Shown piece after piece: positions 1,985-41,736 of a stretch of DNA of 64,000 nucleotides (the stretch's first letter is position 1; the number at the start of each line of letters is the position of its first letter). Under the pieces are notes generated by a model that saw only the letters and a program-made list of their open reading frames with translations, had not been told where the DNA came from and made no database searches. Source of the stretch: a phage. Position numbers and translations under genes: made by a program. Where the stretch lies: the sequence record PV805631.1; one strand, 5' to 3'.

Positions 1985-2311
1985 ATGAAAACTTTAATTG
2001 CTGTTGTTCTAGTAGCTCTATCAGTTCTGTCATTCGGTGCTCAAGCATCTAGTCGTGCAACCTTGTTGGAATCTGCTGCTGATTACAAAGCTAATAATGC
2101 AAACTTTGTGAATCAAGGTTACTTCATGGGCATGGTTACTATGGGTGTGGAAGCAGGAAAGAATTGTGTACCTGACGGTATAAAATTAGGGCACATTTTT
2201 GACAGAGTGGCATCTATTATTCTGTATGACCGAAAGGTTAATGCAGTAAAAGTACCATCAGACATGGTTCTGTTAGCGATTAATACAGCCTATCCCTGCG
2301 TTAAATCTTAA
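1985..2311 (+). CDS. Hypothetical secreted/periplasmic protein
   Basis: N-terminal signal-peptide-like 'MKTLIAVVLVALSVLSFGAQA'. Confidence 0.45.
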   Translation: MKTLIAVVLVALSVLSFGAQASSRATLLESAADYKANNANFVNQGYFMGMVTMGVEAGKNCVPDGIKLGHIFDRVASIILYDRKVNAVKVPSDMVLLAINTAYPCVKS

Positions 2312-2345
2312 TTAGTAATTCCATTAACTTTAGGAGAGTAAGTAA

Positions 2346-3398: not shown

Positions 3399-3401
3399 AC
3401 T

Positions 3402-3878
3402 ATGAACTGGCATGAACTATTTGTTTATAGCAATGGTTCCCTTTACTGGAAAGTAAGTAGGGGCTGCGTAAAAGCAGGTGCCATTGCTGGTTGTTTGGAT
3501 AACAGCGGGTATTTGCGTGTTAAATGTAATAGAAAAAATCATTTAGTTCACCGCATAATTTATGAAATGGAAATTGGTCCAATTCCTGATGGTATGCAGG
3601 TAGACCATATTGACCACAATAGGCTAAATAATTACCCAAGTAATTTCCGTTTAGTAACAAACATGGTTAATAGTAAAAACCAAACCATGAGAGTAACAAA
3701 TACATCAGGTGTGACAGGAGTATACTGGCACACTCGGGATAAAATTTGGACTGCCCATATAAATGACAATGGTAAACAAATTTACTTAGGAAAATTTAAC
3801 AGTAAACAAGAAGCCATTTCAGCCAGAAAGGAAGCAGAAAAATTATTGGGCTACCATATAAATCATGGGGAACCCTAA
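3402..3878 (+). mobile_element. Free-standing HNH homing endonuclease (HNH plus AP2-like DNA-binding domain)
   Basis: 'DHIDHNRLNN...NFRLVT' HNH-type motif, then 'SGVTGVYWHTRDKIWTAHI...QIYLGKFNSKQEAISARKEA' AP2-like; sits between the ATPase and vWA genes. Confidence 0.75.
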
Positions 3879-5053: not shown

Positions 5054-5559
5054 TGATTGTTAATGGTAATTCTCTATACCGTTCATCTCAATTGCTGGAT
5101 GTCCCAGACCGTAAGGTATCCGAGCATGGTGTAAGCTATGGATTAGGTGAAGCTGGTTATGATATTCGTATCAAACAAGACATTACCTTCTATCGCTTAT
5201 TTGGGTTAATTCCAATGGTGAAAATCGTCGATGGAAAACAAGTATCACGCCATCTCGGTAAATTCGCATTAGCTTCAGCAATTGAGAAGTTCAACATGTC
5301 ACCCTCGTGTGTAGCTATCGTTCACGATAAGTCCACATGGGCAAGACGTGCATTATCTGTGTTCAATACCGTAATAGAACCAGGATGGAAAGGGTATCTT
5401 ACCCTTGAACTGGTCTATCACGGTCGTAAGAAACTGCATATCCCGGCTGGTGCTGGGATAGCTCAAGTATTATTTCATCTGGTTCAAGAGCCTGCTAATT
5501 ACAACGGCAAGTATCAGAATCAGGAGGACAAACCAGTAGCTGCAAGAAGCAGTAAATAA
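5053..5559 (+). CDS. dcd: dCTP deaminase-like protein
   Basis: 'IEPGWKGYLTLELVYHG...YNGKYQNQ' parallels E. coli Dcd 'IDPGWSGCIVLEF...YNRREDAKYRNQQG' as recalled. Confidence 0.65.
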   Translation: MIVNGNSLYRSSQLLDVPDRKVSEHGVSYGLGEAGYDIRIKQDITFYRLFGLIPMVKIVDGKQVSRHLGKFALASAIEKFNMSPSCVAIVHDKSTWARRALSVFNTVIEPGWKGYLTLELVYHGRKKLHIPAGAGIAQVLFHLVQEPANYNGKYQNQEDKPVAARSSK

Positions 5560-5568
5560 GGAAACAAC

Positions 5569-5769
5569 ATGTCTGTATTTCAAGTAACTCCTGTTGATAG
5601 TACCCAACGTAAAACTATTGTTGCAACTAATGTAGTAGATGTAGATGAAACCCCAGCTGGTGCTGTAATCCATCTGATTGATGGGCGAACTGTAACTGTA
5701 AAAGAAAGCTATCGTTCAGTACGTGGTTACGTCCGTAAAGCTTTAGCTGCTGTCTCTGATGCAGAGTAA
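5569..5769 (+). CDS. Hypothetical protein
   Basis: 66-aa ORF in operon context. Confidence 0.35.
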   Translation: MSVFQVTPVDSTQRKTIVATNVVDVDETPAGAVIHLIDGRTVTVKESYRSVRGYVRKALAAVSDAE

Positions 5770-5780
5770 GTAGCTGCCTA

Positions 5781-5808
5781 AATAGCCCAACTATGCTGGG
5801 CTATTTGT
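5781..5808 (+). terminator. Hairpin, possible weak terminator
   Basis: Stem AATAGCCCA / TGGGCTATT with a short T-tract. Confidence 0.3.
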
Positions 5809-6103
5809 GAAGAAACTAACTCAACCTCACATAGGAACCATCATGGAATCTTTAGCAGCAATCCTCGTTCTGTTATTTGCACTTGCTATATACCTTATCC
5901 CTACTATTATTGCTTTTGCACGAGGCCATGCCTCTAAGTGGGGCATTGGTATACTCAATATCGTATTAGGCTGGTCTTTAGTCTTCTGGGTAGTAGCACT
6001 GATTTGGTCACTGTCTAACAAAGGGCAGTCTCAGACTACAATCGTTAACGTTGGCAGTGGTAACCAGTACAACGTGTCTCAAACGAGCCAGTCTGATAAG
6101 TAA
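5807..6103 (+). CDS. Superinfection-immunity-like small membrane protein
   Basis: Two TM segments; 'PTIIAFARGH...ILNIVLGWSLVFWVVALIWSL' matches the Imm_superinfect-type motif as recalled. Confidence 0.55.
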   Translation: MKKLTQPHIGTIMESLAAILVLLFALAIYLIPTIIAFARGHASKWGIGILNIVLGWSLVFWVVALIWSLSNKGQSQTTIVNVGSGNQYNVSQTSQSDK

Positions 6104-6177
6104 CTAACCTAAGCATCATTGTATAGTGGTGCTTGTGGAAGTTGCTTCCAGCTCATTACTTATCCATCTCCTAATCC

Positions 6178-6206
6178 AAGCCCACCTAACCCGTGGGCTT
6201 TTTTTA
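6178..6206 (+). terminator. Intrinsic terminator
   Basis: Stem AAGCCCAC / GTGGGCTT followed by TTTTTTT. Confidence 0.75.
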
Positions 6207-6226
6207 ATTATAGGTAGTAAATACTA

Positions 6227-6670
6227 ATGCGTATCCCATTCCTAAGAAAAAGGGAACGGAATCCTGTTCTTTATAATAAAGGCATAGAGGATGAGTATGA
6301 ACTCAACCGTAAGGCCCGTTCCTACGCAGCAAAATTATTCATGGGGACTAGCAACCCTAATAGATTACTGGACTTTGTTTTCGAACAAGTCTTTATCATA
6401 TACAGCTTAGCTATGTCTGCTGGTTCACAAGAAGTAAGTGATAAGGCAAGATATGCTCTCTGTATGCTCCGGAAAGAGTATGAAGCCCTCCTGTATGAAG
6501 ACTTGTACTCCTTTAAGAAAGAAACCGCTGTAGCGTGTTCTGTGGCTCTTACTGAAGGTATAGCAGTATTACAAGAACTACCTCGTAGTGAGTTTAAGCT
6601 GGTATATGCCCAGGCCAGGAGAATTACAGAAAACCGAAGTGGTATTACCAACTATCTAAGGTCATTCTAA
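6227..6670 (+). CDS. Hypothetical protein
   Basis: 147-aa ORF; its stop overlaps the ThyX start. Confidence 0.45.
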   Translation: MRIPFLRKRERNPVLYNKGIEDEYELNRKARSYAAKLFMGTSNPNRLLDFVFEQVFIIYSLAMSAGSQEVSDKARYALCMLRKEYEALLYEDLYSFKKETAVACSVALTEGIAVLQELPRSEFKLVYAQARRITENRSGITNYLRSF

Positions 6671-7614
6671 TGATTAAGGCAACTGTCATTGCAGATTCCG
6701 TTCATCATGTAACGGGTACTCGTATTACTACCTTTGAATTGGTTTATCCTCGATTCATTCACAGTGAGTTTATGACCCACCGTGTATTCAACCGAAATGC
6801 TTCAAGTAGTCGTGCTATCCCTACTTCTAAGTTCATAGAACAGGTTCGTAATGAACCAGTGATGCCAAGTCACTGGGGCAAGAACCAGAAAGGTATGCAG
6901 GCATTTGAAGAATTGTCTGAAGACCAACGTAGTGATGCAACCTTTATCTGGGAACAGGCTGCATCCAGTGCTGCTACCTATGCAGAAATGCTTCGTCGTG
7001 GACAAGTACATAAGCAGATTGTTAACCGTATTCTGGAACCATTTACGCATATCCGTGTAGTGGTAACTTCAACTAGCTGGGCTAATTTCTATGGCTTACG
7101 TGACCATGAAGATGCTCAACCAGAGATTCGTGAACTGGCTCAAGCAATGCGTAAGGCTCATAATGAAAGTGTTCCATCTAAGCTGTCCCAAGGTGTGTGG
7201 CATCTGCCTTATATTCGCAAGATTGATTGTATTAACGCTTACGATCATTGCAAACATCAACGAGTTACTTGTGATAAACCAAGTGATGAAGAAGTTTTAG
7301 GCTTACTGCTTAAAGTCTCTGCTGCTCGCTGTGCACGTGCCTCCTATAACAACTTTGAAGGCAAGCCATCTACTATTAGTGATGACCTTGCCCTCTTTGC
7401 TAAGTTGGTAGAGAAACAACCAATTCATGCGTCACCTACTGAGCATCAAGCTACCCCGATGGACTTCAGTACCAAGTTTGTTAACAACCAGAACCCATTA
7501 ACCTGGGAACAAGGTGTTACCTCTATGGACCGTGAAGGTAAGCTGTACTCAGGCAACTTACTGGATTTCATCCAATTCCGTAAACTAATACCCGGAGAAA
7601 CAATTACAGAATGA
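6670..7614 (+). CDS. thyX: Flavin-dependent thymidylate synthase (ThyX-like)
   Basis: 'FMTHRVFNRNASSSRAIP' resembles the ThyX RHR-x7-S signature, with THR in place of RHR. Confidence 0.6.
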   Translation: MIKATVIADSVHHVTGTRITTFELVYPRFIHSEFMTHRVFNRNASSSRAIPTSKFIEQVRNEPVMPSHWGKNQKGMQAFEELSEDQRSDATFIWEQAASSAATYAEMLRRGQVHKQIVNRILEPFTHIRVVVTSTSWANFYGLRDHEDAQPEIRELAQAMRKAHNESVPSKLSQGVWHLPYIRKIDCINAYDHCKHQRVTCDKPSDEEVLGLLLKVSAARCARASYNNFEGKPSTISDDLALFAKLVEKQPIHASPTEHQATPMDFSTKFVNNQNPLTWEQGVTSMDREGKLYSGNLLDFIQFRKLIPGETITE

Positions 7615-28415: not shown

Positions 28416-31400
28416 TTAATTTACTAAGTTCACCCAAGGGTTCAGGTTGTGAGCACGAAGCCCCTGACCAAAGCCCCATGAGTAATCCAGACTACCCTTA
28501 GCAGCAATACTAAAGATGTTGTCCTGAATAGGTAAGCCAACGTTACCAAACATGGTAGGAGTTGGAGCCAGCATCGCCATTGCTGCATGTACTGGGTTAT
28601 TGCGAATCATGGACACTGCAACCTTAGCTGAACGAATCTTAAAGTTGTAGAACCACATTAAACCAACGCTTTCCATATACCCACGGAAACGGCCCGGCAG
28701 ACGGTCATAGTTAATGAACTCTTCGGTTACACGTCCCAGTGCTTCTTCACGAGTCTTACCTTTACGCTGGGTCAATTCATCATAGATGATTGCTTTAGCG
28801 ATAAAGTCAGAGTACTCAACCGTCTTCTGGATACCCTGGAACAGAGCAGTATCCTTAGTGATAAGTGCATAACGACCAGCAGCACGTACAGACTTAGGTA
28901 ACTTATCCGCCAGCTTTTCCATGTATTCGTGAAGTTTACCTTCAGTAATCAGGATGTCATCACGACCAATACCAGCATCTGCAATTGAAGAGAACTCACC
29001 AGCTTCTATCAGAGGCCAGATACTCATACGCTTATGGCTATCAGTAATGGACTGAATCTCAGCCTTAAGTTTACGAATCTGGTTCGGGTTAGTAGCTGCA
29101 CGTAATTCTGCTTCTGCATCTACCTGACGTAAACGAGATTTAAGGTATTGGTTAATCTCAGCAGTCTTCCGTGGAATGCTCTTAGCAATGTTCTTAACCG
29201 GTACACCACGAGCAACCATCTGGTAAAGGTTAGCCAAAAAGTTAACAACAGGTACGACTACTGACTTAACTACAATCAGAGTCTTAGCATCTTTAACTAA
29301 ATTTTGAACCAGGTTCTCACCACCCATTAAGTACTTATAGGCACGGTTACCGGCTAAACCCAGAATAGCTTTTTTAAAAGTATTAAGCGTTTCCGGGGAC
29401 CAACGAGAATTACCAGACCAAGCATCACCAATCGAAGCTGCACGATAGCCAAGTGCATCATTCAGCATGTCACGACGTACCCACAGTTCACCCTCACCAA
29501 ACAGTTTTTCTGCTTTCCGTCGAGTTTCACTGTTCATCAGCTTAAGAGCATCAGCAGTTACTGGGTCCAGTTTAGAACCAAAAAGGTTCACGTACTGGGA
29601 CTTATTAGCAGCAGACATCTTAATGTCTTCCTTGTACATGCTATACAGGTTCTCAATCAGCATATCATTGAAACGCTGAGCCTTAGCTTCTTCCACCTGA
29701 CGTCCACGCCATACACCAATTGCACGGGCAAGATGATTTTCACCTTCAATATGCTTCAGCATATTAGGGTTAATTGATTGCTCATAAGCAACCACATCAC
29801 CTTTAGCATTATATACAGGCAGCAGTGGTTCATTACCACGTTCACCACGAGCTAGTGCTTTAGCGATACGGTCTACAGAAGGCTTGTCAGTAATACGACC
29901 AGCTACCATGGAACCCATAGTAAAGCCTGTACCGAGGTCTACACCACCAGCAGTATTACGAACGTTCTGTAGAATACCTTGTGAGAACGGAGCCTGTGCC
30001 TGTACTGGGGCAAAGTAGTAGCTACGTGCCAGACCTCGGTTAGCAGAGCTACCTTGATAAGTACCCAGACGAACATAGGACTTCTCTATCAAATCACCAA
30101 ACTCGCTATCTTCAGCAACAACCAGACTAACACCCTGTTTAGTCTCACTAGGGATATACCCTTTGTACTGGTTCAGGGTTGCACGCATATCAGACTTGGC
30201 TTTAGCCATTTCATCTTTACGCTGCCCAACCAGGTAAGAAGTAGCAAAGTCCATTCCCTCAACTTCTGTCTGAGCCAGTGAAGATAACATCTCACGGTCG
30301 GACTTGTTCATTGCTTCCAGTGCATACAGGGTAATAAGTTTATCCAGTTGAGCTACATCTACAATAGAACGAGTAGTCTTACGTTCACCCAGCATACGAG
30401 AGATTGCAGTAGCATTACGCAGCAAGTTTTTACCGACTGTGCCATTAATCATGTACTGAGCCAGTTGCTTAGATTTACGGTTAATCAGAGGCCAGTTACG
30501 ACCAGCTTGTTTCTGCAAATCTGCTTCCAGCTTATTCACTTCACGGTCAACAATCTTCTGGTCTGAAAGCAGGTCACGAATTTCAGCCAGAGACATGGTG
30601 TCACGCAGGACAGCTAAGTCAGTTTTACCCATACCAGTGTACATTGCTTTCCACTCATCCTTAGTCAGCTTACGGCTGAACTTAGATGCGATAGTGGTAG
30701 GCAGGTGTTCACGGAACTGCTGACGGTCAGCCTGCACCTGTGCACGGACTGCTTTAATCAAATCGTATACAGAAGCATTGCTCTTAGTACGACCGGTTAA
30801 ATCATTAACCAGGTCATGGAAAGGTTGCCATACTTTACCCTGGTTCATTGCAACCATAACGCCTTCAGCTACGTTTGCACCATTCTTCTCTGTAGCAATA
30901 GCAGCCATTAGTTGTGCAGCATGAGCAGCACCTTTGACCAATGGGTTCTTGGTATTAGCTGCAACTTCACGAGCACTTTCTAAAACACGAGTAGACAGTA
31001 CATCAATAGAGTCCACCAAATACTGGTTAGCACGGTCAATAGCATTACCACTAGGAGTAGCAACGGAATCATAGAATGACTGTGCATTTAGGCTAGTCTG
31101 CATGATTGTTTGAGCCAGTGCATCCATACCTTCCTGTACGTTGGTAGCTTTGGTATCACCTGCTACACGAGCATTCAGACTAGCCATTGCAGCAGTACCA
31201 ATGTTAGTCAGCATTGCATCAACGGTATTCCCAGATTTCTTATCTGCTTTCATAACAGGAATGTTAGCCAGTACGTTACGTACCTCTTCACTTACCATTG
31301 CCAGACCAACAAAGGTAGGCAGTATTGAAGAACGACCCTGTGCATCAAACTCAATATTGTTAGCACCCATGATGGTATCGAACTTCTGCTGTGCATAGTA

Positions 31401-34400
31401 ACGGTCAGCAGGGTTAGTACTATCTGGGTCAGTCATGAATGATTCAACAGTCAGGTTCTTAGTAACGTGTGCATAGTATTCCTGTGCACGAGAAAGAGCA
31501 GCCGGACTAATAGCAGCTTCAGTAGCGAGTGCAGCAACAATGTTAGTAAAGAGACGCTGCTCCTGCATATTCATAGTGAAGCCATGAGCCTGAACATCAC
31601 GGGTTACTTTAGTTGCGTGCTTTTTCGCATCAGAGAACTTACCTTCACGGATTACTTGCTGTACTGGTTCTGAACCAATGTAGTTAGTAATCAGCTTATC
31701 AAATGTCTGTCCTAACTCTTCCAGACGGGTATTGTCACCATATGCTTTGTTATGGAACAAAGTAGTATCTTTGGCTACAGCAGCAGTAGGAGCCTGCCCA
31801 CGCATAACAACTGAAGAGTTAAACAGTAAGCCAGAGAACATATCATCAGCATTAGCAGGTGCTTCTTCACGACCAAATACCAGTCGCTTGATTGCTTCAT
31901 ATACAGACTGAATCATAACTTTCAGTGCTGTGGTCTTCTTCTGCTTACTAATTAGCTCCTGGTTAGTTAAACCCCATGCCATGTACTCATTTAATGCAGC
32001 AGCTTTAGCTATTGCTGGTTCAATATAGCCATTAGACAAGTAGCCGTTAATGGTATAGAGGGCATCGGCATATGCTTCACGTACTTCCGGAGATTCATCC
32101 TTAACATCCAGAGCAAGGAACTGGTTCATCAGGTCTTCGATATTCTGGACTGCTTCGTTAGGAGTACCCTCATAGTGAGCCAGTACAGATTCAAAAGTAG
32201 AAGCATGTACCAATTCATGAACCAGAGTCTCTAAGGAAGGGGTGACTAAGTAGATGGTCTTATCATCAAAGTTAGTCCAGCCGTATGTATTACCTGCTTC
32301 GGCAGCTTCAATATCTTCTGGTGCTGGACGGGTAATGTTCTTCTCAATAGCGTAAGCATCCAATTGAGCAGGAGTACCGTAAACAACCTTGTAGTCTTTA
32401 GCAGCAAGGGATTTCTGTATCTCTTTCAATACTGCTTGCTGTTCTGGAGACATCTCTTTAGCCAGCTTGGTAATAGCAGTATTAGACAATAGACGTACAC
32501 CAGACTTAAGTACACGACCAACTTGTTCCATTGCTGGCACTTCTTTAACAGGTGCTTCTTTAGTAGGTACTTCTTTCACTGGATCTGCTTTAGCAGCACG
32601 TACTGCATCACGACGCTTATTTAATTCAGCATCAAACAGTTCGTTCAGCTTAGCTACTTGCTGGTCTACAGTCAGTCCCTCAAGAGAAATTTTACCGTTG
32701 TTCACATAAGGAGCACCTACAGCAGCCATCTGGTCAACAGTGGTCTGTACCTGGTTCATTACTTTGTGGCGAATATCCACACTTAAAGCAATGTTACGCA
32801 GGTTACGCTCAATAAGGTTAACACCGGAATTCTTAATCATATCAATCTTATACTGCCTGTCTCCCTCAACGCGACTGATATGAGAAAGCTGTTCAAAATC
32901 TAAAGCGGAACGGGCAATGTCATCAATTGTCTTATCTGACAACTTATCAAAGTCTACATTCTTCAAGAACTCAGAGAAGGATTCATATACAGCCTTGATA
33001 GGATTCCCCTGCCAGGAAGTGTATACAGCCTCGTTTGCTTTACGACTTGCATCAGTGATGTCACTAATACCAATGTTCATACCATCAAAGATTTTCAGGG
33101 TATTCTTCGGAGCACCTTTCATAGTAGAAAGGGTCTGCATCATCATGCCATCACCAGTACCGATGGTCATAAATGGAATACCTGCAACACCTGCTTGTGA
33201 AGGAGCATAGATGCTCATTGGCACACGCATACGGTCATCTAAGTTGGTAGCCAGTACTTGGTTAGCAACGTCAGTACTCTCACTGCCAGCAAGGTAGAAA
33301 GTCTGTGAGCCAGTCTCAATCATTGGAGCCAGTGGTGATAATGATTCCTGGATTTCATTCAGTTCTTTCTGTGTTAAGAAATCACCCTTCTTCCAGGTTG
33401 GGTCTTTTTCTTTTTCTGCTAGCTTAGCCTGTACTGCTTGCTGGAACATATCCTGCAATACCAGGGACTGAATCTGAGTAGCCTTCTGCAAGTTCTCAGT
33501 AGAGTACATCAGACCTTCACCAACAGTATTACGGATACCAGTACGCATTGGTTCAACGAACAAATGGAGCATATTCTCTTGTAAGTTCTTCAGAGCATTA
33601 CCGGATACGGTAAATTTCTGAGGGTCTAACTTACCAGTCAGAGCACCATCTACTTCCTTAATAAATAACTTACCCTTACGCTTAGCTGGAATCTTACCGG
33701 TCAGTGCTTCCATAGAAGTAAGGAAAGTATCCAGCATAGCCTGAGCATCTGCCTCAGACGCAGCCTCCTTACCAAACATTGCCATAGCCGGGGAAATGCT
33801 AGGGTCAGCAGCACGTGCTTGCAGAACGTCGCTGAAGCGTTCGTAGATGGTGTCAGTAATTGCACTGACCATCTTGCCAGCAATACCACGAGCACCAGAA
33901 CCATAGATGGTAATGGTCAGAGGGTTCTTAGCGATACCACGTTTCAGGTCCAGAGTACCATCTTCATTCAGGTTAAAGTCTTTAATGAACAGGTCCATTA
34001 ACTTCTGGAGATGATTTATCTGGTTCATAACTGGAACGTTGTTACGGTAAGTAGTACGTAACTCATTCAGTGCTTGTTGTAGACCATTGGTAGATGCTTC
34101 ATACAAGTCAACATTATCGTCGATAGAACAATGTTCATTCATCGTTTTACCAGCACGACCGAAAAACAAACCACCTTTGGCAGTATTCTTAATCCAGTCT
34201 GGAGTGAACTTACCACCGGTCATTAATACCATTGCGTTGATTGGGCCGTTGGTTACACCATCAGCTTCAACGTACAGAGGGGTAGTAAAATTAACACGAT
34301 CATCACTGTTCAGGTAACGGGCATATTCCATCAGAGCCATGAGAGCCACGAAGGATTTGTTATCACCCAGAGAGGTTTTCAGAATATCTACTGCATCAGT

Positions 34401-37400
34401 AGGTAAGTAGCCAGACTTATCAAACTCGACCATCATATCAACAGCAGGTTTCAGATTACCTTCCAGAGCTTTGGTCAGATTTTCAGACATAGCTTCACGG
34501 GACATTTTATGTACCTTGATGCCTAATGCCTGAGCCAGACCTAACTGGAAGTCAGAGAACGCTTGGCTGTTTTCATTACTCAAGTCAATAGTAGAGAAGG
34601 TTGGCAGAATTGCTTCACGAACCAGCTTACTGGATTGTGGGTTATTCTTACCAAGCATCTGCATACGACCTACACGGGTCATGTTGTAACCGTAGTGAAT
34701 GGGGGTATCCAAACCATTCTCTTGTTCTTTTAGCTGATTAATTAAACCGAACAAGGAATCATATGCCATAGACACAGACAGGTTTTTACCCTCCAGTGAC
34801 TTAGCAGTGTTACCGTTCAACAGTTTAGGATTAAGAGTACCAGCACCCATCAGTTCCAGAATGCCGTCACGCCCCAATGCTTCATAGAAGTTAACCATCG
34901 GCATGTGTACACGGAACTCCGTAGCCTGTTCAGCTTTCAAAGCAGCTTTCTGTTCCGGGGTATTCCTAACAGCAGGGTTACGTAACTGAGTTTGAGCCAC
35001 GGAAGGAATGTCATCACCGAAGTACGTTTTCTCTTCCGGATTTACCAGCACAGCTTCCTCAATTGCTGTAGGGAAATTATTAATAGGGTCTTTATCTGCC
35101 AACTTATTAATAGTGTACAGACCAATAGTCTTATTAGAGTCCGGGTCAATCTCAGACACATCCAGCATAGTCTCAGTAACTGCACCCATCTCAATGAGGG
35201 AAGACAGAATCTCTGTAGCCATTGCCACTGGAATACCCTTGGTATAACCCAGTGGTGCATTAGGGTTACGGTTTAAACCCCAGTAGGATTCAATCTTTTG
35301 AGCCAGTGAGTTAGTAGCCTCAATCAGAGTCTGGGCATTATCAAACTCAGCCAGAATACTTTCTGGTAACAGAGATGCATCTACACCAGTAATAGCAGCC
35401 ACGTCTTTCATGTCTTTAATGGCAGCATTCTGTGTAGCAGTCAGTCGCCATTGCAAACCAGCAAGTACAGCAGTCTCTAACAACTGATCATTGAACTTAA
35501 AGGTATCCCCGTCTTTCTCTACGATGTTAAGTAACTTACCACCTACCCAACGGTTAGCCTCAGTACCTTCTGCAAAACGTTTACCAACATTCTTATTAGC
35601 AAGGAACTTAGCCAGTCGTTCAGACAAAGTAGTCTTCAAAGTTTCCCCAAAGTCCATCAAGTCTTGATAGCGTTCTAACACATCACCTGCGAGAACGTTA
35701 TTTTCTTTTTGAGTGAACGCTTCAAAGCGAGCAGCAGAAGACAGTGCTTTCTTGATATCAGCCAAAGGAGATTCTGAACCAATGGTACGAGTCTTAGGTT
35801 CTTCCGGTAAGGTAAATGCTTTCAGAAACTGGTTCGGTGTCTTTTCATTGTTATAGACAGGGAACACTGCTTCCATTCCAGAAAGAGGTTTGCCACCCAC
35901 TGTATAATCTGCTTTCAGCTGAGCCAGTGATACTTCATCTTCCTCTACGTTGTTAGTGTTAAGACCAGAGGTATCTACACCAACCAGAATATGTGCATTA
36001 TTGGCTTCAACGAAAGATTGAACAGTATTGAATTGTTCAGCAGTCAGTTTCTGATCATCGAACAGCTGTAAGGACACAAACGGTTGTTCGCTGCCTTTAT
36101 AGAACATAGAGCGAATAGCACCTGTATCCAGAGACATATCACGATAACCATCATGACCAAATACATCGGACAGGCTGATATGGTCGCCATTAGAGCCAAC
36201 CACAGTACCATCAGCAAACAGCCATGGACTCTCTCTACGATCACCATACTTATTAAGAGTTTCCTGTGAAATAGTATTTTCTTTCACATAAGCATCTCTT
36301 TCAGATTCGGTAGGTTGCTCGATGGTATCCTCATTAGTAAGGGTAGCATCATCTACAACCGGGCTAGCCTTTTCAGACTTAGGTACTTTCTCTTCCTGTA
36401 CAGGTGTAACTTCTGGCTGGGAGAATGTATTACGTACATAGTTCATAAAATCATTACGTGCTTGGGAAGGGGAAGACCATACTTCCCGTGTGCTACGTAA
36501 ACTAAAGATTCGACCTTCAGGAGTCATTACGTAAGGTACATTTGTTTTACCGTACTTAAATGAAGTGAGTACATCTGACTTACCAGTAACAGTGCTTTCC
36601 CCTGGAATGACAATAGTCTTACCACCAGTAGAAGGAACAGCACGAACACCCTCAATATCCTTACCAAGAGAAATATACTCTTTACCGTTGTAATCAAAGT
36701 ACTGACCTATCTGCATATAGGTAGCTTGTTGCTTACCAGTAAACTCAGCAGTTTTCATCTCCGGGCCGTTAGGTACAGACGTACTTTCAGACTTAGGCTT
36801 AGATACTTTCTCTGGTTCTGACTTAGACTCTACAGTGTTAGGGGCAGTCTCTTTTGCTTCGACTGGTGCAGTTTTTGACTGTACAGTAATGGCTGGTTCC
36901 TGTGTTTTTACAGGTGTTTCATCAACCTGATTCACTGGTTCATTAGTCTGTTGGGACTGAGTGGCATTAAGACCACCTTGACGGAACTCTTTAACTACCT
37001 GGGCAGCTGGCTTGTTCAGACGTGAATCCAACGAGGTAACTTTCACATGAGAAACATTAAGCTCCGGGTAAGCCGTAGCAAGTGCATTAGCAATATCAGC
37101 TACGGTTTTGGCCTCCAGTGCTACTTGCTGGGCAAACTTAACAGACTTGGTATCATAAGGATTAACACCGAGGCCAGTACGACTACGTACCCATTCACGG
37201 GTAGGCGTGAGAGCCTGATAATGAACAGACTTATTCTTATCCGCATTCCCCGAAATCAGATGCTCATTCAACGCTCCGACCTTATTCTGCATGTGCTGGG
37301 CGAACTTCATAAAATCGCTCAGATAAGCGGAAGCCAAATCGAAGTTACCAGAGTTATACGCAGAACGAATGCGTTTCGCATGTTGCAACGCAGAGTACTG

Positions 37401-39695
37401 TCCTTCATTAGAACGAGACTCGTCGGTTTTAATCTGTTTACTAACAATGTCTTGAGGACGTAAGCCCAGTTCTTCTGCTTTAGCATCATACTCACGTGCA
37501 CCCTGTAACAGAGCAGCAGCTGATTGCAGGGCAGCACGTTGACGATTATTCAGTGTAATCTTACCTTCACTTGCGTGCTTCAGAACCATGTTCACTGAAT
37601 CTGCATCCAGTACTTCTGGAGACACATCAGCAGCCATAGCAATGTTGTTTGCTTGGGCTTGATTAGCTTCTTCAGTAGCTTTCAGTTTACCTGCTTCAGC
37701 TTGTTCCTGAATCATGGAATGGATGGCACGGAATGCACGAAGTACTTTAGGGGTATTCTGTATGTTAGCCATCAGGCCGGAGAACTGGTCTACGATTGCA
37801 GCAGCAGGAGAACCTTGTTCCAGATTAGCCAGAGCACCTGGGTCACGGTTAATGAAGCTATCCATAGACATGATGTTGTCATACATCTGGATTGCAGCTT
37901 CCATTTGAACGTCAGGGTCTTCAGCAGTATTAACCAAGTCAGCCATCTTCTGAATAGCTTCCACACGGTTAGTGGAACCAGAAACAGCTTCACGGATTAC
38001 TGGGTTGGCTTGTTCCAATTCTACTGGGTCAAACTTCATTGCCTGAGTCAAGTCAGCAGCATACTGGGTAGCAGCAGCTTTCTCTTCTGGAGTGATATCC
38101 ATTGCATCTACTGCTTCCTGTACGGTTGCCTGTGCTTGTTCTGCCTGAGCAACAGCTTCCTGTGCAGCAGCATTAACCGTAGCATCGGCTACAGGGGATG
38201 CTTGTTCATTACGCTTAGCAACTTCTTCCCCACGTTGAACCAGGATGTTAGTAAGAGGAGATGCAGCTTTTGCTAATGTTTTACCAACCAGAGAAGCACC
38301 AGCCAGAGTGGTACGAAGAGCAGGTCCAGCAGCAGCACCGGCAGCTTTAACAGTTGCACCAGGAGCCTGAGCAACACCAGCACTACCGAAGCCATAGAGT
38401 GCACCAAGACCCGCTTGCTCACCGACACCTTTGAGGGTATCTCGGGATGCATCAACATTTTCCTTGATTGCACGGTTCTGTGCGAACTGACCAAAGCCTG
38501 ATTGAGTACCCTCTTCAAAAGTCTGAGCACCAAGGTTAGTAAGAGCTGCCCCAGCAGAACCAACCCTCATGGGGTTAAGTTCAAACTTAGATACTAACGG
38601 ACCCATAGCAGCAGCAACTGGGGCAGTTAAGGCAGCAGCAATGATACCCGTTTCAGATGCAGTCTGACGACGTGCTTCATCAGGAGATAAACCATCAGCA
38701 ATATGTTGTTGGTAAACAGGAGACTTACTTGCCAGTTCTGGATGGGACATCTTCATGATTTCAGAAGCAGTCTGTTGGTATGCACCCCCGGCTTCCATGC
38801 CACCGATTGCAATAGCAGGTGCAGCAACACGACCAGTAGACAATGCAACCTGTGCAGGACGTGAACCCAACCCAGCAGCTAAGGTAATACCCTTAACAGC
38901 TTTATCACCACCTACCATTACTTTACCGAGTGCAGATACACCACGAATAAGTGGACCACCAGTAAAGAGGGAACCGACACCCTCACTCAGTCCATCTGAG
39001 GCAGCCATACCATTATCAAGTGTGTTAGCAACAGAGTCGAAAGCATCACGACCAATACGAGACAGGGAGGCAACCAAATCACTCTCCCCGTTTTTGATGT
39101 CCTGTTCATAGAGTTTCTGGTTCTTTTGAGCAGAAATCTGGTTCTGATTCTGAACAACTTTACGGGTAGCATTCAGTGCATCAGACTGTAGATTGTGTAC
39201 GCCTTCATTCAGCCAATCCATCCCGGAAGCAATGGTTGCCCCGGCATTATCATTGACCAGACCTGCGCCAAGAGCAGCAATGCCCCCAAGGGTATTAGCA
39301 ACACCAAGACCAACACCAGAAAGAGTATCGCCAAATGCTTCTGCGTTAGTACGCTGTTTAGATAAGTCCTGACGTACAGCATCCGCAGCATTAGCTCGGC
39401 TATTAAGAATCTGTAAACCTTGCTCATTACCGTACTTATTAATGATTTCTAATGGGGAGGCTTGAGTGAAGTCTGCCTGAAGTGAACCTGGTTCGAATGC
39501 ACCGATTCCAAGATTACCTACTCGTCCAGTCTGGAGAGTGTAAGCATTCTCTGGGGTTAATTGGAAAGGGCTTTGCCCTTGTGCAGCTTGCTTCTGAGAG
39601 GTTGCAGTAGAGACATCGACTTGCTTAGCATTAGTGATGCTGTCTGCGAAACCTGCCAGACGGTCAAATGTTGACATAGCATGTTTCCTGTTCAA
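28416..39695 (-). CDS. Giant virion-encapsidated RNA polymerase (N4 vRNAP-like)
   Basis: Single 3759-aa ORF; single-subunit RNAP motifs in order: T/DxxGR 'MTRVGRMQ', motif B-like 'KRGIAKNPLTITIYGSG', Asp-containing 'KIFDGMNIGISD'; last gene of the late block. Confidence 0.85.
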   Translation of the reverse strand: MNRKHAMSTFDRLAGFADSITNAKQVDVSTATSQKQAAQGQSPFQLTPENAYTLQTGRVGNLGIGAFEPGSLQADFTQASPLEIINKYGNEQGLQILNSRANAADAVRQDLSKQRTNAEAFGDTLSGVGLGVANTLGGIAALGAGLVNDNAGATIASGMDWLNEGVHNLQSDALNATRKVVQNQNQISAQKNQKLYEQDIKNGESDLVASLSRIGRDAFDSVANTLDNGMAASDGLSEGVGSLFTGGPLIRGVSALGKVMVGGDKAVKGITLAAGLGSRPAQVALSTGRVAAPAIAIGGMEAGGAYQQTASEIMKMSHPELASKSPVYQQHIADGLSPDEARRQTASETGIIAAALTAPVAAAMGPLVSKFELNPMRVGSAGAALTNLGAQTFEEGTQSGFGQFAQNRAIKENVDASRDTLKGVGEQAGLGALYGFGSAGVAQAPGATVKAAGAAAGPALRTTLAGASLVGKTLAKAASPLTNILVQRGEEVAKRNEQASPVADATVNAAAQEAVAQAEQAQATVQEAVDAMDITPEEKAAATQYAADLTQAMKFDPVELEQANPVIREAVSGSTNRVEAIQKMADLVNTAEDPDVQMEAAIQMYDNIMSMDSFINRDPGALANLEQGSPAAAIVDQFSGLMANIQNTPKVLRAFRAIHSMIQEQAEAGKLKATEEANQAQANNIAMAADVSPEVLDADSVNMVLKHASEGKITLNNRQRAALQSAAALLQGAREYDAKAEELGLRPQDIVSKQIKTDESRSNEGQYSALQHAKRIRSAYNSGNFDLASAYLSDFMKFAQHMQNKVGALNEHLISGNADKNKSVHYQALTPTREWVRSRTGLGVNPYDTKSVKFAQQVALEAKTVADIANALATAYPELNVSHVKVTSLDSRLNKPAAQVVKEFRQGGLNATQSQQTNEPVNQVDETPVKTQEPAITVQSKTAPVEAKETAPNTVESKSEPEKVSKPKSESTSVPNGPEMKTAEFTGKQQATYMQIGQYFDYNGKEYISLGKDIEGVRAVPSTGGKTIVIPGESTVTGKSDVLTSFKYGKTNVPYVMTPEGRIFSLRSTREVWSSPSQARNDFMNYVRNTFSQPEVTPVQEEKVPKSEKASPVVDDATLTNEDTIEQPTESERDAYVKENTISQETLNKYGDRRESPWLFADGTVVGSNGDHISLSDVFGHDGYRDMSLDTGAIRSMFYKGSEQPFVSLQLFDDQKLTAEQFNTVQSFVEANNAHILVGVDTSGLNTNNVEEDEVSLAQLKADYTVGGKPLSGMEAVFPVYNNEKTPNQFLKAFTLPEEPKTRTIGSESPLADIKKALSSAARFEAFTQKENNVLAGDVLERYQDLMDFGETLKTTLSERLAKFLANKNVGKRFAEGTEANRWVGGKLLNIVEKDGDTFKFNDQLLETAVLAGLQWRLTATQNAAIKDMKDVAAITGVDASLLPESILAEFDNAQTLIEATNSLAQKIESYWGLNRNPNAPLGYTKGIPVAMATEILSSLIEMGAVTETMLDVSEIDPDSNKTIGLYTINKLADKDPINNFPTAIEEAVLVNPEEKTYFGDDIPSVAQTQLRNPAVRNTPEQKAALKAEQATEFRVHMPMVNFYEALGRDGILELMGAGTLNPKLLNGNTAKSLEGKNLSVSMAYDSLFGLINQLKEQENGLDTPIHYGYNMTRVGRMQMLGKNNPQSSKLVREAILPTFSTIDLSNENSQAFSDFQLGLAQALGIKVHKMSREAMSENLTKALEGNLKPAVDMMVEFDKSGYLPTDAVDILKTSLGDNKSFVALMALMEYARYLNSDDRVNFTTPLYVEADGVTNGPINAMVLMTGGKFTPDWIKNTAKGGLFFGRAGKTMNEHCSIDDNVDLYEASTNGLQQALNELRTTYRNNVPVMNQINHLQKLMDLFIKDFNLNEDGTLDLKRGIAKNPLTITIYGSGARGIAGKMVSAITDTIYERFSDVLQARAADPSISPAMAMFGKEAASEADAQAMLDTFLTSMEALTGKIPAKRKGKLFIKEVDGALTGKLDPQKFTVSGNALKNLQENMLHLFVEPMRTGIRNTVGEGLMYSTENLQKATQIQSLVLQDMFQQAVQAKLAEKEKDPTWKKGDFLTQKELNEIQESLSPLAPMIETGSQTFYLAGSESTDVANQVLATNLDDRMRVPMSIYAPSQAGVAGIPFMTIGTGDGMMMQTLSTMKGAPKNTLKIFDGMNIGISDITDASRKANEAVYTSWQGNPIKAVYESFSEFLKNVDFDKLSDKTIDDIARSALDFEQLSHISRVEGDRQYKIDMIKNSGVNLIERNLRNIALSVDIRHKVMNQVQTTVDQMAAVGAPYVNNGKISLEGLTVDQQVAKLNELFDAELNKRRDAVRAAKADPVKEVPTKEAPVKEVPAMEQVGRVLKSGVRLLSNTAITKLAKEMSPEQQAVLKEIQKSLAAKDYKVVYGTPAQLDAYAIEKNITRPAPEDIEAAEAGNTYGWTNFDDKTIYLVTPSLETLVHELVHASTFESVLAHYEGTPNEAVQNIEDLMNQFLALDVKDESPEVREAYADALYTINGYLSNGYIEPAIAKAAALNEYMAWGLTNQELISKQKKTTALKVMIQSVYEAIKRLVFGREEAPANADDMFSGLLFNSSVVMRGQAPTAAVAKDTTLFHNKAYGDNTRLEELGQTFDKLITNYIGSEPVQQVIREGKFSDAKKHATKVTRDVQAHGFTMNMQEQRLFTNIVAALATEAAISPAALSRAQEYYAHVTKNLTVESFMTDPDSTNPADRYYAQQKFDTIMGANNIEFDAQGRSSILPTFVGLAMVSEEVRNVLANIPVMKADKKSGNTVDAMLTNIGTAAMASLNARVAGDTKATNVQEGMDALAQTIMQTSLNAQSFYDSVATPSGNAIDRANQYLVDSIDVLSTRVLESAREVAANTKNPLVKGAAHAAQLMAAIATEKNGANVAEGVMVAMNQGKVWQPFHDLVNDLTGRTKSNASVYDLIKAVRAQVQADRQQFREHLPTTIASKFSRKLTKDEWKAMYTGMGKTDLAVLRDTMSLAEIRDLLSDQKIVDREVNKLEADLQKQAGRNWPLINRKSKQLAQYMINGTVGKNLLRNATAISRMLGERKTTRSIVDVAQLDKLITLYALEAMNKSDREMLSSLAQTEVEGMDFATSYLVGQRKDEMAKAKSDMRATLNQYKGYIPSETKQGVSLVVAEDSEFGDLIEKSYVRLGTYQGSSANRGLARSYYFAPVQAQAPFSQGILQNVRNTAGGVDLGTGFTMGSMVAGRITDKPSVDRIAKALARGERGNEPLLPVYNAKGDVVAYEQSINPNMLKHIEGENHLARAIGVWRGRQVEEAKAQRFNDMLIENLYSMYKEDIKMSAANKSQYVNLFGSKLDPVTADALKLMNSETRRKAEKLFGEGELWVRRDMLNDALGYRAASIGDAWSGNSRWSPETLNTFKKAILGLAGNRAYKYLMGGENLVQNLVKDAKTLIVVKSVVVPVVNFLANLYQMVARGVPVKNIAKSIPRKTAEINQYLKSRLRQVDAEAELRAATNPNQIRKLKAEIQSITDSHKRMSIWPLIEAGEFSSIADAGIGRDDILITEGKLHEYMEKLADKLPKSVRAAGRYALITKDTALFQGIQKTVEYSDFIAKAIIYDELTQRKGKTREEALGRVTEEFINYDRLPGRFRGYMESVGLMWFYNFKIRSAKVAVSMIRNNPVHAAMAMLAPTPTMFGNVGLPIQDNIFSIAAKGSLDYSWGFGQGLRAHNLNPWVNLVN

Positions 39696-39771
39696 ACTTA
39701 TATCGTATATAGGTAACTTACTCTACAGTAAGCCAGTTAAAGAAAAAAGCCCCGTAGGGCTTTTATTAGTA

Positions 39772-41736
39772 TTACCGATTTTGTCTGGGTTGCATATACT
39801 CAGGCAGTCCTTGTGCCTGACGTAAGTACCGTGCAGCACGTTCTTCATCTTCCTTGGCTCGTGCCCTGTCCACACTAGCCTGTGACCGAAAACCTCTTGG
39901 AGCCAGGTTAGCTGGGTCAGCCTGTACTTGTGCCTGTGCAGCTTGGAGCATTGCAGCAGCTTTAGTAACAGCCTCCTGTCGTGCAGGTAACAGTGCAGTA
40001 AGACCAGTTTGCCCGGTGTTAATCTTATTCTGGGTATTTGCCAGTGCAGCTACAGCAGCATCATACGCAGTCTGTGCTGCCTGAATATTCTGCATAGCTT
40101 GAGCACGACCTAGGTTACGAACACTACCTTCCAGTGGTTCTCCACGTTTCACACCCTCAATTAACTGTTCTACCTGACGGTCATTAAGACGCATACCATT
40201 ACCGGCTTCATTGGTAATGAATGGGTTAACTGCATCAATAGCACGGCTAATATAACCTTCCGGTACACCGGTCTGTGCACGTTGCATAACAGCAGCAGCC
40301 ATAGCAGGTGACATATTCCCACGTTGGGAAATATCGTTCAGTCGGTTCAGTACCCAGTTACGGTCAGCACCTTTAAAATCACCTTCCAACAGACGGTTAG
40401 CAATCTCACCTACTGGGGTATTATCAGTGACAGTACCGAGGAAGTCTGTGTTAAGACTACCGGTGTTATCCTGCATGGAACGTGTACCAATCATACCCTG
40501 AGCCAGAGTAGATACTGCCTGATTACCTTGATTATTCTGAACCATAGCTAGTGGGTCAGCCCCTACTTCAGCTTGGGCAATAACAGGTTTAATCTCTTCC
40601 CATGTCATATCCTTATAAGCACCTGGGGTAGAGTTAGGCAGAGCAGCCCAAGTATCTTTAAGGTTACCGTTCTTACGAGCCTCGAAGATAGCCTTACCAA
40701 TCTTATCCTGGTTCTCAGGAGAAAGGGGCTGGCTTTGCCAATCTGAACCAAGAACTTTAGGAGCGAAGTCTTTCAGGGTAGCTTGGTTAATCTGGAATGC
40801 TCCAACAGGTGAAGCACCCTGATTCGACTTCATACCATCCTGGTGTTTAATTACATCACCAATACTCATTTGAGTAATAGGAGTAGATGTACCAGCAAAC
40901 TGGTAGGTAACATCGTAAGGGGAACCCTGACGTGTACCAGCAGTACCCGGAGCAGACGTAGCACCAACATTGTTACCGTAAACACCCGGGTATGCTCGTG
41001 CAAGCATTTCCTGCAAACGTGCCTGGGCAACCGGAGACAGGTTCTTACTATATGCTTCTGCCAATAGACGGGCATCATTAGGGTTCTCAGCACCACGGGT
41101 AATCTGTGACATTACACCCATAGCTGCCTGACTATCGGCATCATTACGCTGAGCAACACCTAAATCAAAACGGTTCTGTGCCTGATTAATAGCCTGACCA
41201 CTTTGGCCTTGAAGACGGCTCAGCATGTCCAATTGCTGGTCAGCAGGGAGTGCAGACAATGCATCACGGGTCTGACTTAATGCAGCATTAATACGGTTCT
41301 GGTCACCTGACTGGTATGCCTCAGACAGTAAACGGATAGCAGGGGAAGCATTATCTAATGCAGTGTTAGTATCCTGTAAACGACCAAAGCGATACGCATT
41401 GTAGTCATTGGTTCCCTGCTGACCTTGTTGAGTCAACAGTGTACCTGCTCTCTCATCCAGGTTTTGAAGGGTACGCTGGTTTATCAATGAACGGTCAACC
41501 CCCTGAAATAATGCACCAGATGCCAAAGCATTACGGTACTCAGTAGGGTCTTGGTACTGCATAGCATTCATCATGACGGCATTGCCAGCCTCCTGCTTGG
41601 CAGCGTTCTGGAAATTACCCAGTGCATCACTTAAGCCGGAGGTGGCGTTACCAATCATGCTGCCAAATGTGCGAATGCTGTCACCAACTCCAGAAAAGTT
41701 AGGTGCATCAACATTACGCCATGTAATTTGAGCCAT
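39772..41736 (-). CDS. Virion-associated protein, possible muralytic/internal virion protein
   Basis: 654 aa, Gln/Ala-rich repeats; 'GAFQINQATL' is only weakly transglycosylase-like. Confidence 0.45.
   Translation of the reverse strand: MAQITWRNVDAPNFSGVGDSIRTFGSMIGNATSGLSDALGNFQNAAKQEAGNAVMMNAMQYQDPTEYRNALASGALFQGVDRSLINQRTLQNLDERAGTLLTQQGQQGTNDYNAYRFGRLQDTNTALDNASPAIRLLSEAYQSGDQNRINAALSQTRDALSALPADQQLDMLSRLQGQSGQAINQAQNRFDLGVAQRNDADSQAAMGVMSQITRGAENPNDARLLAEAYSKNLSPVAQARLQEMLARAYPGVYGNNVGATSAPGTAGTRQGSPYDVTYQFAGTSTPITQMSIGDVIKHQDGMKSNQGASPVGAFQINQATLKDFAPKVLGSDWQSQPLSPENQDKIGKAIFEARKNGNLKDTWAALPNSTPGAYKDMTWEEIKPVIAQAEVGADPLAMVQNNQGNQAVSTLAQGMIGTRSMQDNTGSLNTDFLGTVTDNTPVGEIANRLLEGDFKGADRNWVLNRLNDISQRGNMSPAMAAAVMQRAQTGVPEGYISRAIDAVNPFITNEAGNGMRLNDRQVEQLIEGVKRGEPLEGSVRNLGRAQAMQNIQAAQTAYDAAVAALANTQNKINTGQTGLTALLPARQEAVTKAAAMLQAAQAQVQADPANLAPRGFRSQASVDRARAKEDEERAARYLRQAQGLPEYMQPRQNR

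Follow-up and report, generated by a model that had tools for sequence, protein, structure and literature searches.

The giant virion RNA polymerase (vRNAP) of this phage owes its surplus of ~253 aa over the phage N4 protein to two discrete in-frame modules, inserts A and B, located in the tether linking the N-terminal domain (NTD) to the polymerase domain (Pol), and not to terminal extensions. The gene lies on the minus strand of the window (the whole 64,000-nt stretch of phage DNA analysed, record PV805631.1), where the ORF listing gives an uninterrupted frame of 3759 aa from the first in-frame TTG to a TAA stop, the same span that the original prediction had put forward, with no strand given, as a single unbroken ORF. 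This frame contains one stop, the terminal TAA, versus 100–490 in each of the five other frames, and the probability of meeting no stop in 3759 codons is ~1e-96 as estimated from base composition. Translation almost certainly begins at the ATG at 39677, which yields 3753 aa (the numbering used below), because AGGAAA lies upstream of this codon, the TTG has no Shine–Dalgarno sequence, and N4 and G7C gp50 both begin MS(V/T)FDRLAGFADS.

28416..39695, minus strand: ORF as listed, TTG to TAA, 3759 codons.
28416..39677, minus strand: probable CDS from ATG to stop, 3753 aa; orthologous to G7C gp50 and N4 gp50 (identity, annotation, PHROG).
39684..39689, minus strand: Shine–Dalgarno-like AGGAAA, 6 nt 5′ of the ATG (read from sequence).
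39743..39764, minus strand: terminator-like GC hairpin and T-run between the gp51 stop (39772) and gp50 (sequence).
28384..28411, no single strand: bidirectional rho-independent terminator just beyond the gp50 stop, where plus- and minus-strand gene blocks converge.

Both terminators have annotated counterparts, the hairpin at the equivalent position in PhAPEC7 and the bidirectional terminator downstream of gp50 in G7C.

There is little room for doubt that this ORF encodes gp50, the single-subunit RNA polymerase packaged in the virions of a G7C-like Gamaleyavirus (Schitoviridae). It shares 98.6% nucleotide identity over 100% of its length with the gene annotated 'virion RNA polymerase' in G7C (Escherichia phage vB_EcoP_G7C gp50, YP_004782180.1, Gamaleyavirus), and the full-length protein is 99% identical to that of G7C and, collinearly, 67% identical to that of N4. 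The match to PHROG 2206, 'virion RNA polymerase', scores 4055 bits. Profile searching for RNAP motifs, the check named with the original prediction, recovered all four Pfam domains (vRNAP_dom_2, vRNAP_plug, N4_RNAP_helical and vRNAP_dom; E 1e-25 to 5e-101), with the accessions PF21867, PF21624, PF21894 and PF21769 in Pol far over their gathering scores. Against the PDB, the full-length N4 structures 9PNR and 11GP were matched at 4946 bits and the mini-vRNAP at 1650 bits. Pfam, PDB and motif mapping thus agree with the claim of a vRNAP with a central single-subunit RNAP core, and its length does exceed that of N4 gp50 (3753/3759 versus 3500 aa) while staying within the ~3300–3800 aa of the gp50 family. 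Judged by sequence, the polymerase itself is already known, being a near-identical copy of an annotated gene.

The genomic setting is that of an ejection/structural operon. Three ORFs (654, 160 and 883 aa) precede gp50 on the same strand, in a region 98.8% identical at the nucleotide level to G7C gp51–gp54, with gp50 directly after the gp51-gp52-gp53 homologues. Cysteine occurs once in 3753 aa (aa 1850), versus 0.93% in other ORFs of at least 200 aa, and the gp51 homologue has none; such scarcity is a published hallmark of schitovirus ejection proteins, which cross the periplasm, in a survey where vRNAP length across 191 schitoviruses averages 3476 ± 176 aa (PMC11445570). In the G7C record, gp51 and gp54 are marked as present in the virion, and gp50 carries no such note. 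By coordinate mapping to G7C, the window apparently lacks ~7.8 kb at the left end of the genome, the expected site of early promoters.

It is hardly conceivable that so long an ORF is an assembly or annotation artefact fusing separate genes. The pSb-1 record does carry the gene in three pieces, and other records mislabel it 'DNA polymerase' or 'gram positive anchor domain protein', but G7C, sequenced independently, is collinear and shows a single in-frame 15-nt indel and no frameshift, coverage of the ORF reaches 80% or more in 59 phage records, and N4 gp50 was purified and its structure solved as one 3500-aa chain. On these three grounds the fusion was rejected.

The protein follows the N4 gp50 order of NTD, linker 1, Pol, linker 2 and C-terminal domain (CTD) (3500 aa; PDB 9PNR, 11GP, 3Q0A, 2PO4), as laid out here from the N to the C terminus.

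36975..39677, minus strand: NTD, aa 1–901 (N4 1–906), putative membrane-associating part (N4 alignment, hydropathy; N4 function PMC13434306).
35880..36974, minus strand: linker 1, aa 902–1266 (N4 907–1007), P/E/K/T/S-rich tether (N4 alignment, composition).
32586..35879, minus strand: Pol, aa 1267–2364 (N4 1008–2104, 'mini-vRNAP') (four Pfam domains; PDB 3q0a, 2po4, 9pnq).
34665..34679, minus strand: T/DxxGR motif TRVGR, aa 1667–1671, R1671 = N4 R424 (N4 alignment).
34245..34274, minus strand: motif A YVEADGVTNG, catalytic D1806 = N4 D559 (N4 alignment).
33900..33941, minus strand: motif B RGIAKNPLTITIYG, R1913/K1917/Y1925 = N4 R666/K670/Y678 (N4 alignment).
33075..33095, minus strand: motif C KIFDGMN, catalytic D2198 = N4 D951 (N4 alignment).
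32526..32585, minus strand: linker 2, aa 2365–2384, 15-nt tandem repeat (PVKEV/PTKEA) (sequence, G7C alignment).
28419..32525, minus strand: CTD, aa 2385–3753 (N4 2123–3500), helical, putatively autoinhibitory (alignment to 9PNR, 11GP; PMC13434306, PMC13492108, PMC5512222).
32205..32219, minus strand: HExxH = HELVH, aa 2487–2491, zincin-like metallopeptidase motif of CTD-C1 (aligns with N4 H2228).

Residues 1–965 align to N4 1–969 at 1158 bits, and a hydropathy scan places hydrophobic Gly/Ala-rich stretches of the NTD at aa 118–142 and 340–364. Both motifs that the original prediction had picked out are present in Pol, where TRVGRMQ (aa 1667–1673) aligns to the N4 T/DxxGR motif (R424) and the motif B-like stretch KNPLTITIYGSG (aa 1917–1928) aligns to N4 motif B (K670, Y678). 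In mini-vRNAP numbering, R424, D559, R666/K670/Y678 and D951 are the motif residues reportedly given by Kazmierczak 2002 and Murakami 2008; the N4 sequence has the expected residue types at these positions, and their equivalents in the present protein, together with that of W129, are identical within identical local context. All catalytic and promoter-contact residues checked are shared with N4, as are the HExxH motif and the near absence of cysteine. A full-length structure for the vRNAP family was published in 2026, and for the zincin-like HELVH motif the published sources are Iyer et al. 2017 (PMC5512222) and Bellis 2026.

The NTD and CTD do flank Pol as the original prediction described, but its view that these flanks are of unclear function gives way to roles published for N4, in which the NTD inserts into the membrane and the helical, HExxH-bearing CTD autoinhibits the polymerase (PMC13434306, PMC13492108). 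The HExxH-domain region is needed for encapsidation according to Iyer et al. (PMC5512222). From orthology to N4, we infer encapsidation, ejection and hairpin-promoter transcription of gp50 in the present phage. A few copies would be packaged in the capsid, a step to which published work links the HExxH-domain region. Upon infection of E. coli, gp50 would be threaded domain by domain through the ~30–35 Å tail and gp51/gp52 channel, and its NTD would insert into the membrane. The central T7-like polymerase would then refold in the cytoplasm and transcribe early genes from DNA-hairpin promoters, which would help to pull the genome in, and the helical HExxH CTD would keep it autoinhibited until a promoter is bound.

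A proteolytic role for the CTD, in which the zincin-like domain cuts gp50 after packaging or injection so that the polymerase and the linker modules become effectors in their own right, appears improbable. HELVH is conserved, Iyer et al. group the region with zincin metallopeptidases and put forward autoprocessing (PMC5512222), and insert B resides elsewhere in polyvalent proteins; yet Iyer et al. themselves state that N4 vRNAP is found unprocessed (PMC5512222), recombinant N4 gp50 is undegraded with its NTD intact, and the cryo-EM papers (PMC13434306, PMC13492108) give the CTD an autoinhibitory role and report no proteolytic one.

The alignment to N4 that had been suggested with the original prediction delimits the core and maps the extra residues to linker 1. 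This segment is ~100 aa of low-complexity sequence with no folded module in N4, and has grown to ~365 aa here through inserts A and B; the indel map resolves the extra residues as 136 + 5 + 114 + 10.

36414..36767, minus strand: insert A, aa 971–1088 (GPEMK...NTFSQP), orphan module (tblastn, BLASTP, AF2).
35898..36266, minus strand: insert B, aa 1138–1260, unnamed ~120-aa alpha/beta domain family (tblastn, representative search, AF2).

The two modules are unrelated to each other by hhalign. Their presence varies among close relatives, with neither in PhAPEC7 (3450 aa), insert B only in Bp4 (3570 aa) and both in G7C (3748 aa), and they are therefore dispensable for core function. G7C gp50 also has the same neighbours and the same single cysteine at aa 1850; the present protein is longer by one extra 5-aa linker 2 repeat unit (3753 versus 3748 aa). 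Nucleotide identity between the two phages is 100% in the NTD, in most of linker 1 together with insert A and most of insert B, and over the bulk of the CTD. Of the 28 amino acid substitutions, 27 lie within aa 1296–2420 (Pol, linker 2 and the beginning of the CTD) and one is at aa 3749. This clustering in the aligned sequences suggests a recombination patch.

Insert A was found by tblastn in three phage records and is common only to G7C and Shigella phage B2. In the vRNAP of B2 (gp30, 3741 aa; Ithacavirus, Humphriesvirinae), it occupies the same relative place in the linker upstream of Pol (~aa 957–1083), but the flanking linker sequence is unrelated, and tblastn did not find insert B there. 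The insert A copies share 76% amino acid and 76.6% nucleotide identity, whereas identity falls to 26% across the Pol and C-terminal regions in a 2550-column BLASTP alignment. This disparity points to horizontal exchange of insert A with a phage of another subfamily. An exhaustive search of a 1.84e9-representative library recovered no relatives of insert A, and searches of IMG/VR, metagenome contigs and GTDB genomes with the protein, the two-sequence alignment and a degenerate IFSLRSTREVW pattern returned G7C alone. The module is predicted, at low confidence, to be beta-rich with a C-terminal helix (AF2 pLDDT 39, single sequence), and a profile search against the PDB gave nothing significant.

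Insert B has a far wider distribution. It occurs in 29 phage records by tblastn and in only some Gamaleyaviruses, being absent from PhAPEC7 and N4, and 20 representatives in the 1.84e9-representative library match the region at E ≤ 2e-4. Members are 24–68% identical, share the motif SPWL..DG..GDH...TGAIR...Q.LT..Q. and retain a mostly polar set of invariant residues (S, P, L, G, D, H, R and Q), and the AF2 fold is confident (pLDDT 94.9). Alignment columns D28, H29 and R52 of the family correspond to D1165, H1166 and R1189 of gp50. A degenerate DNA pattern encoding SPWL..DG(7 aa)DH picked out 16 IMG/VR loci, 15 of which were confirmed by HMM. Insert B has no Pfam, NCBIfam or PADLOC match and no significant PDB match, and 19 family members gave no match to Pfam LPD models at E ≤ 1.

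The homologues co-occur with LPD38, LPD22, LPD39, SLT, InPase, ART-PolyVal and ddrB-ParB, and are further hosted by SNF2-type helicase plus methyltransferase proteins and by TrwC relaxase proteins. One homologue, P0011, stands alone as a 166-aa protein. Homologues also precede Pol in two vRNAPs, immediately in a distant one (P0012; 25% identity over the part of Pol that aligns) and at an upstream position in one encoded on an IMG/VR contig (L012). On this distribution of sequence matches, insert B is a conserved domain shared with the polyvalent proteins of phages and conjugative elements, which are co-injected and combine several effectors. Such proteins are giant, multi-domain and delivered with DNA, and include the DarB-like helicase plus methylase giants. 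Iyer et al. 2017 had already counted N4-type vRNAPs in this class, with a zincin-like domain as the constant fusion partner and ART, lysozyme or PBECR domains as variable ones; their paper does not mention G7C (PMC5512222). In keeping with this class, gp50 combines the HExxH region, variable inserted modules and, in insert B, a domain shared with the LPD-, ART-PolyVal-, InPase-, SLT-, ddrB-ParB- or TrwC-bearing proteins listed above. Two polyvalent proteins (P0003 and P0004) carry insert B at 57–60% identity alongside SLT, a helicase, a methyltransferase, LPD39 or ddrB-ParB, with no polymerase. Of the LPD1–40 families, those in Pfam were compared with insert B, and none matched it.

We tentatively favour a reading in which the polymerase brings inserts A and B into the cell with it, as accessory cargo or effector beads. 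More speculatively, the NTD–Pol tether may act as a cargo slot for small modules that fold independently. These would be swapped in and out, also across subfamilies and with DarB-like polyvalent proteins, and would enter the host alongside the polymerase to serve as early effectors, insert B being a new and possibly enzymatic domain and insert A a lineage-restricted one. The suggestion of an enzymatic effector family comes from the invariant S/P/L/G/D/H/R/Q constellation of insert B and its lack of a significant structural match.

Neutral length variation is a serious competitor, although it too falls short of being probable. The inserts, inactive in themselves in this context, would then only lengthen the disordered tether that connects the membrane-bound NTD with the cytoplasmic polymerase. 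Both lie within a low-complexity P/E/K/T/S-rich linker, relatives more than 90% identical at the nucleotide level lack one or both (PhAPEC7, Bp4), insert A relatives were detected in two phage lineages only, and their presence or absence in phages that are nearly identical is as compatible with neutrality as with an accessory function. However, a neutral spacer does not readily account for a family with eight invariant residues and a confidently predicted fold, nor for the recurrence of insert B directly upstream of Pol in a 25%-identical vRNAP. The retention of insert A, with sharp boundaries, at 76% identity between vRNAPs otherwise only 26% identical likewise suggests selection on the module.

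An identity of the inserts as inteins, or as self-splicing or selfish elements of another kind that the mature protein would lack, can be discounted almost entirely. Inteins are not known to be as small as these ~118–123-aa modules. The insertions are in-frame, sharply bounded and patchily distributed, and the G7C group has intron/homing-endonuclease insertions in other polymerase genes (bioRxiv 10.1101/542787), but aa 900–1300 contain no Pfam match of any kind, hence no Hint domain, at E ≤ 5. The boundaries have no cysteine (insert A runs GPEMK...FSQP, and the sole cysteine is at aa 1850), the modules occupy a disordered linker and not a conserved catalytic site, and insert B is a stable domain in many other proteins. 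Intein identity, which calls for a Hint profile match and a Cys/Ser/Thr nucleophile at the splice junctions, was rejected on these grounds.

The functions of the inserts are a modest lead. The length difference from N4 is explained, in that linker 1, which is unresolved in the N4 cryo-EM maps, can host folded beads. This affects the beads-on-a-string model of translocation, since any added beads must also pass through the ~30–35 Å channel. Insert B represents a widespread domain of injected polyvalent proteins that had gone unannotated, and G7C with E. coli 4s offers a tractable system in which it could be studied genetically.

The gp50 gene is a single reading frame with no internal stops, as originally predicted, whereas each of the five remaining frames holds 100–490 stops across this interval. 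From base composition, the probability of 3759 stop-free codons is ~1e-96. The in-frame TTG has no ribosome-binding site, whereas an ATG at 39677, 18 nt 3′ of it, has AGGAAA 6 nt before it and opens a product beginning MSTFDRLAGFADS..., an N terminus common to N4 and G7C gp50. This makes 3753 aa the most likely length of the true product. The collinear, independent G7C sequence rules out an artefactual gene fusion, as does N4 gp50, which was purified and solved as a single chain.

Features at the gp50 locus
28384–28411, bidirectional GC-rich hairpin terminator, 5 nt past the gp50 stop
28416–39695, minus strand, gp50 ORF, 3759 codons, opening at the first in-frame TTG and closed by TAA
32539–32576, linker-2 tandem repeat, 15-nt unit, 2.5 copies, encoding PVKEV/PTKEA
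34128–34130, C1850, the sole gp50 cysteine
35898–36266, insert B, aa 1138–1260
36414–36767, insert A, aa 971–1088
39743–39764, terminator-like hairpin between the gp51 homologue and gp50
39772–41736, minus strand, gp51 ejection-protein homologue, 654 aa, zero cysteines

Homologues of gp51, gp52, gp53 and gp54 lie upstream of gp50 on the same strand. Beyond its stop, the bidirectional hairpin marks the convergence of plus-strand replication genes and minus-strand structural genes; G7C is likewise annotated with a bidirectional terminator at the gp50 end. A 165-aa plus-strand ORF (26077–26574) occupies the position of the gp47.1 HNH homing endonuclease, which is annotated in G7C and absent between gp47 and gp48 of the N4 map.

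Megablast against 50,697 phage records yielded 88 matches to the ORF, 59 with at least 80% coverage. G7C, in full Escherichia phage vB_EcoP_G7C (Gamaleyavirus, Schitoviridae), aligns along 100% of the ORF with 98.6% identity, and the matching feature is a 3748-aa gp50 annotated 'virion RNA polymerase' (vRNAP). The protein is end-to-end collinear with G7C and N4 gp50 (3500 aa), with 99% and 67% amino acid identity, respectively. Further support for the predicted vRNAP comes from a positive profile search (four N4-vRNAP Pfam families, E 1e-25 to 5e-101), from PHROG 2206 'virion RNA polymerase' (4055 bits), and from PDB matches to polymerase-domain crystal structures and 2025–26 full-length N4 cryo-EM entries. 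Both motifs quoted in the original prediction are present; their N4 counterparts in the alignment are the T/DxxGR motif and motif B. Alignment mapping shows R424, D559, R666, K670, Y678, D951 and W129 (N4, mini-vRNAP numbering) to be identical here, in identical local sequence, and the C-terminal HExxH is kept as HELVH at aa 2487. At the sequence level, gp50 displays all testable defining features of the vRNAP family; it is essentially G7C gp50, and thus an already known member of an annotated, structurally characterised family. Orthologues are mis-annotated 'DNA polymerase' in the U1G, ST4, PD205 and HK2 records, others are labelled 'gram positive anchor domain protein' (ECBP1 GenBank record) or 'hypothetical protein', and the pSb-1 record splits the vRNAP gene in three pieces.

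Differences from G7C number 153 nt, all but 3 of them within window positions 32178–35946 (ORF nt 3732–7500). Beginning at the end of insert B, this ~3.8-kb stretch crosses Pol and linker 2 into the start of the CTD, while the NTD, the remaining CTD and most of linker 1 are 100% identical; it resembles a patch acquired by recombination from another Gamaleyavirus. The linker-2 repeat has one unit fewer in G7C, corresponding to a 5-aa insertion here (aa 2368–2372). Of the 3753 gp50 residues only 1 is a cysteine, whereas cysteine makes up 0.93% of the phage's other large ORFs. Schitovirus ejection proteins are characteristically poor in cysteine according to published work (PMC11445570), making C1850, shared with G7C, a rare exception. 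Cysteine is absent from the vRNAPs of N4, B2, PhAPEC7, Bp4 and the distant P0012, and from P0003 and P0004, two polyvalent proteins lacking a polymerase.

Alignment to N4 vRNAP delimited the polymerase and mapped the insertions to linker 1.

Domains of gp50 from the N4 alignment
aa 1–901, NTD
aa 902–1266, linker 1
aa 1267–2364, Pol
aa 2365–2384, linker 2
aa 2385–3753, CTD

In two papers from 2026, full-length N4 gp50 is described as a lipid-binding NTD (aa 1–906), a low-complexity linker of ~100 aa not visible in cryo-EM (aa 907–1006), a right-hand polymerase (aa 1008–2104) followed by a short second linker, and a large, helical, HExxH-containing CTD (aa 2123–3500) that keeps the polymerase autoinhibited up to promoter binding (PMC13434306, PMC13492108). 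According to Iyer et al. (2017, PMC5512222), encapsidation requires the region with the HExxH domain. As proposed for N4, gp50 would pass as beads on a string through the ~30–35 Å tail and the gp51/gp52 channel. Linker 1 would then tether it to the membrane during early-gene transcription, and the CTD may here too autoinhibit the polymerase until a promoter is bound.

The predicted excess over N4 is real (3753 versus 3500 aa). Blocks of 136, 5, 114 and 10 aa fall between N4 positions 965 and 1006, while everything else differs by ≤9 aa in the indel map, placing the surplus in sequence almost entirely in linker 1. A five-phage linker alignment resolves two discrete modules in P/E/K/T/S-rich spacer: PhAPEC7 (3450 aa) and N4 have neither, Bp4 (3570 aa) has B only, and G7C and the window phage have both. 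Inserts A and B are unrelated to each other. Inteins are ruled out, as the linker region matches no Pfam family, the boundaries are cysteine-free and the inserts lie in disordered linker.

Insert B occurs in 29 phage records (tblastn), all Escherichia/Shigella Gamaleyavirus-like vRNAPs at ≥90% identity, and is missing from other Gamaleyavirus members. Searching 1.84 billion cluster representatives exhaustively with phmmer (E≤1e-3) returned 22 proteins, the best 20 all matching the insert B region. Homologues include a stand-alone 166-aa protein; large proteins with LPD38, LPD22, LPD39, SLT lysozyme, InPase, ddrB-ParB, an SNF2-type helicase plus methyltransferase, or TrwC relaxase; and the distant vRNAP P0012. 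The 3597-aa P0012 has its insert-B-like domain directly upstream of a Pol 25% identical to the window's over ~400 aligned residues. A degenerate DNA pattern located 16 IMG/VR loci (15 HMM-confirmed), including one further vRNAP and one ART-PolyVal protein. The large hosts correspond to the 'polyvalent proteins' described by Iyer et al. 2017, who had already assigned N4-type vRNAPs, variably fused to ART, lysozyme and PBECR domains, to this class (PMC5512222). The nearest relatives (57–64% identity) include the polymerase-less P0003 and P0004, whereas the vRNAP P0012 is more distant (37%), which suggests exchange of insert B between vRNAPs and other injected giant proteins. At about aa 1120–1400, the N-terminal half of the P0012 sequence also shows HELDH, a second motif of the HExxH type, slightly upstream of the insert-B-like domain; the pre-Pol region thus carries differing extra modules across schitovirus lineages.

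A 19-member insert B alignment contains invariant S, P, L, G, D, H, R and Q, with the motif SPWL..DG..GDH...TGAIR...Q.LT..Q, and AlphaFold2 predicts from it a compact alpha/beta domain (pLDDT 94.9). Sequence searches of Pfam, NCBIfam, PADLOC and PDB gave zero matches. The set of conserved polar residues may point to a role in catalysis or ligand binding.

Among all phage records, insert A has relatives only in G7C and Shigella phage B2, an Ithacavirus of another subfamily; the B2 copy occupies the corresponding place in the linker. No further relatives turned up in the representative library, in IMG/VR, in two metagenome scans or in a GTDB genome scan. The window and B2 modules share 76% amino acid and 76.6% DNA identity within sharp boundaries (GPEMK...FxQP), against merely 26% for the Pol and C-terminal regions (BLASTP), which argues for horizontal transfer. 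AF2 modelling from the single sequence gave a poor prediction (pLDDT 39), with beta strands and a C-terminal helix.

The inserts may be early effectors, a tentative reading that falls somewhat short of an even chance. Neutral expansion of the tether is nearly as likely. Insert B is, however, conserved in very distant proteins and insert A is retained in phages that are otherwise divergent, both of which argue for selection on the modules. Release of the linker modules through HExxH-mediated cleavage (the Iyer hypothesis) is conceivable but lacks support, since N4 gp50 occurs unprocessed.

What gp50 adds to a known family is the localisation of its extra length to two swappable linker-1 modules. 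Insert A provides evidence of cross-subfamily exchange, and insert B represents a widespread domain of polyvalent proteins that has no name and whose confidently predicted fold is unmatched.
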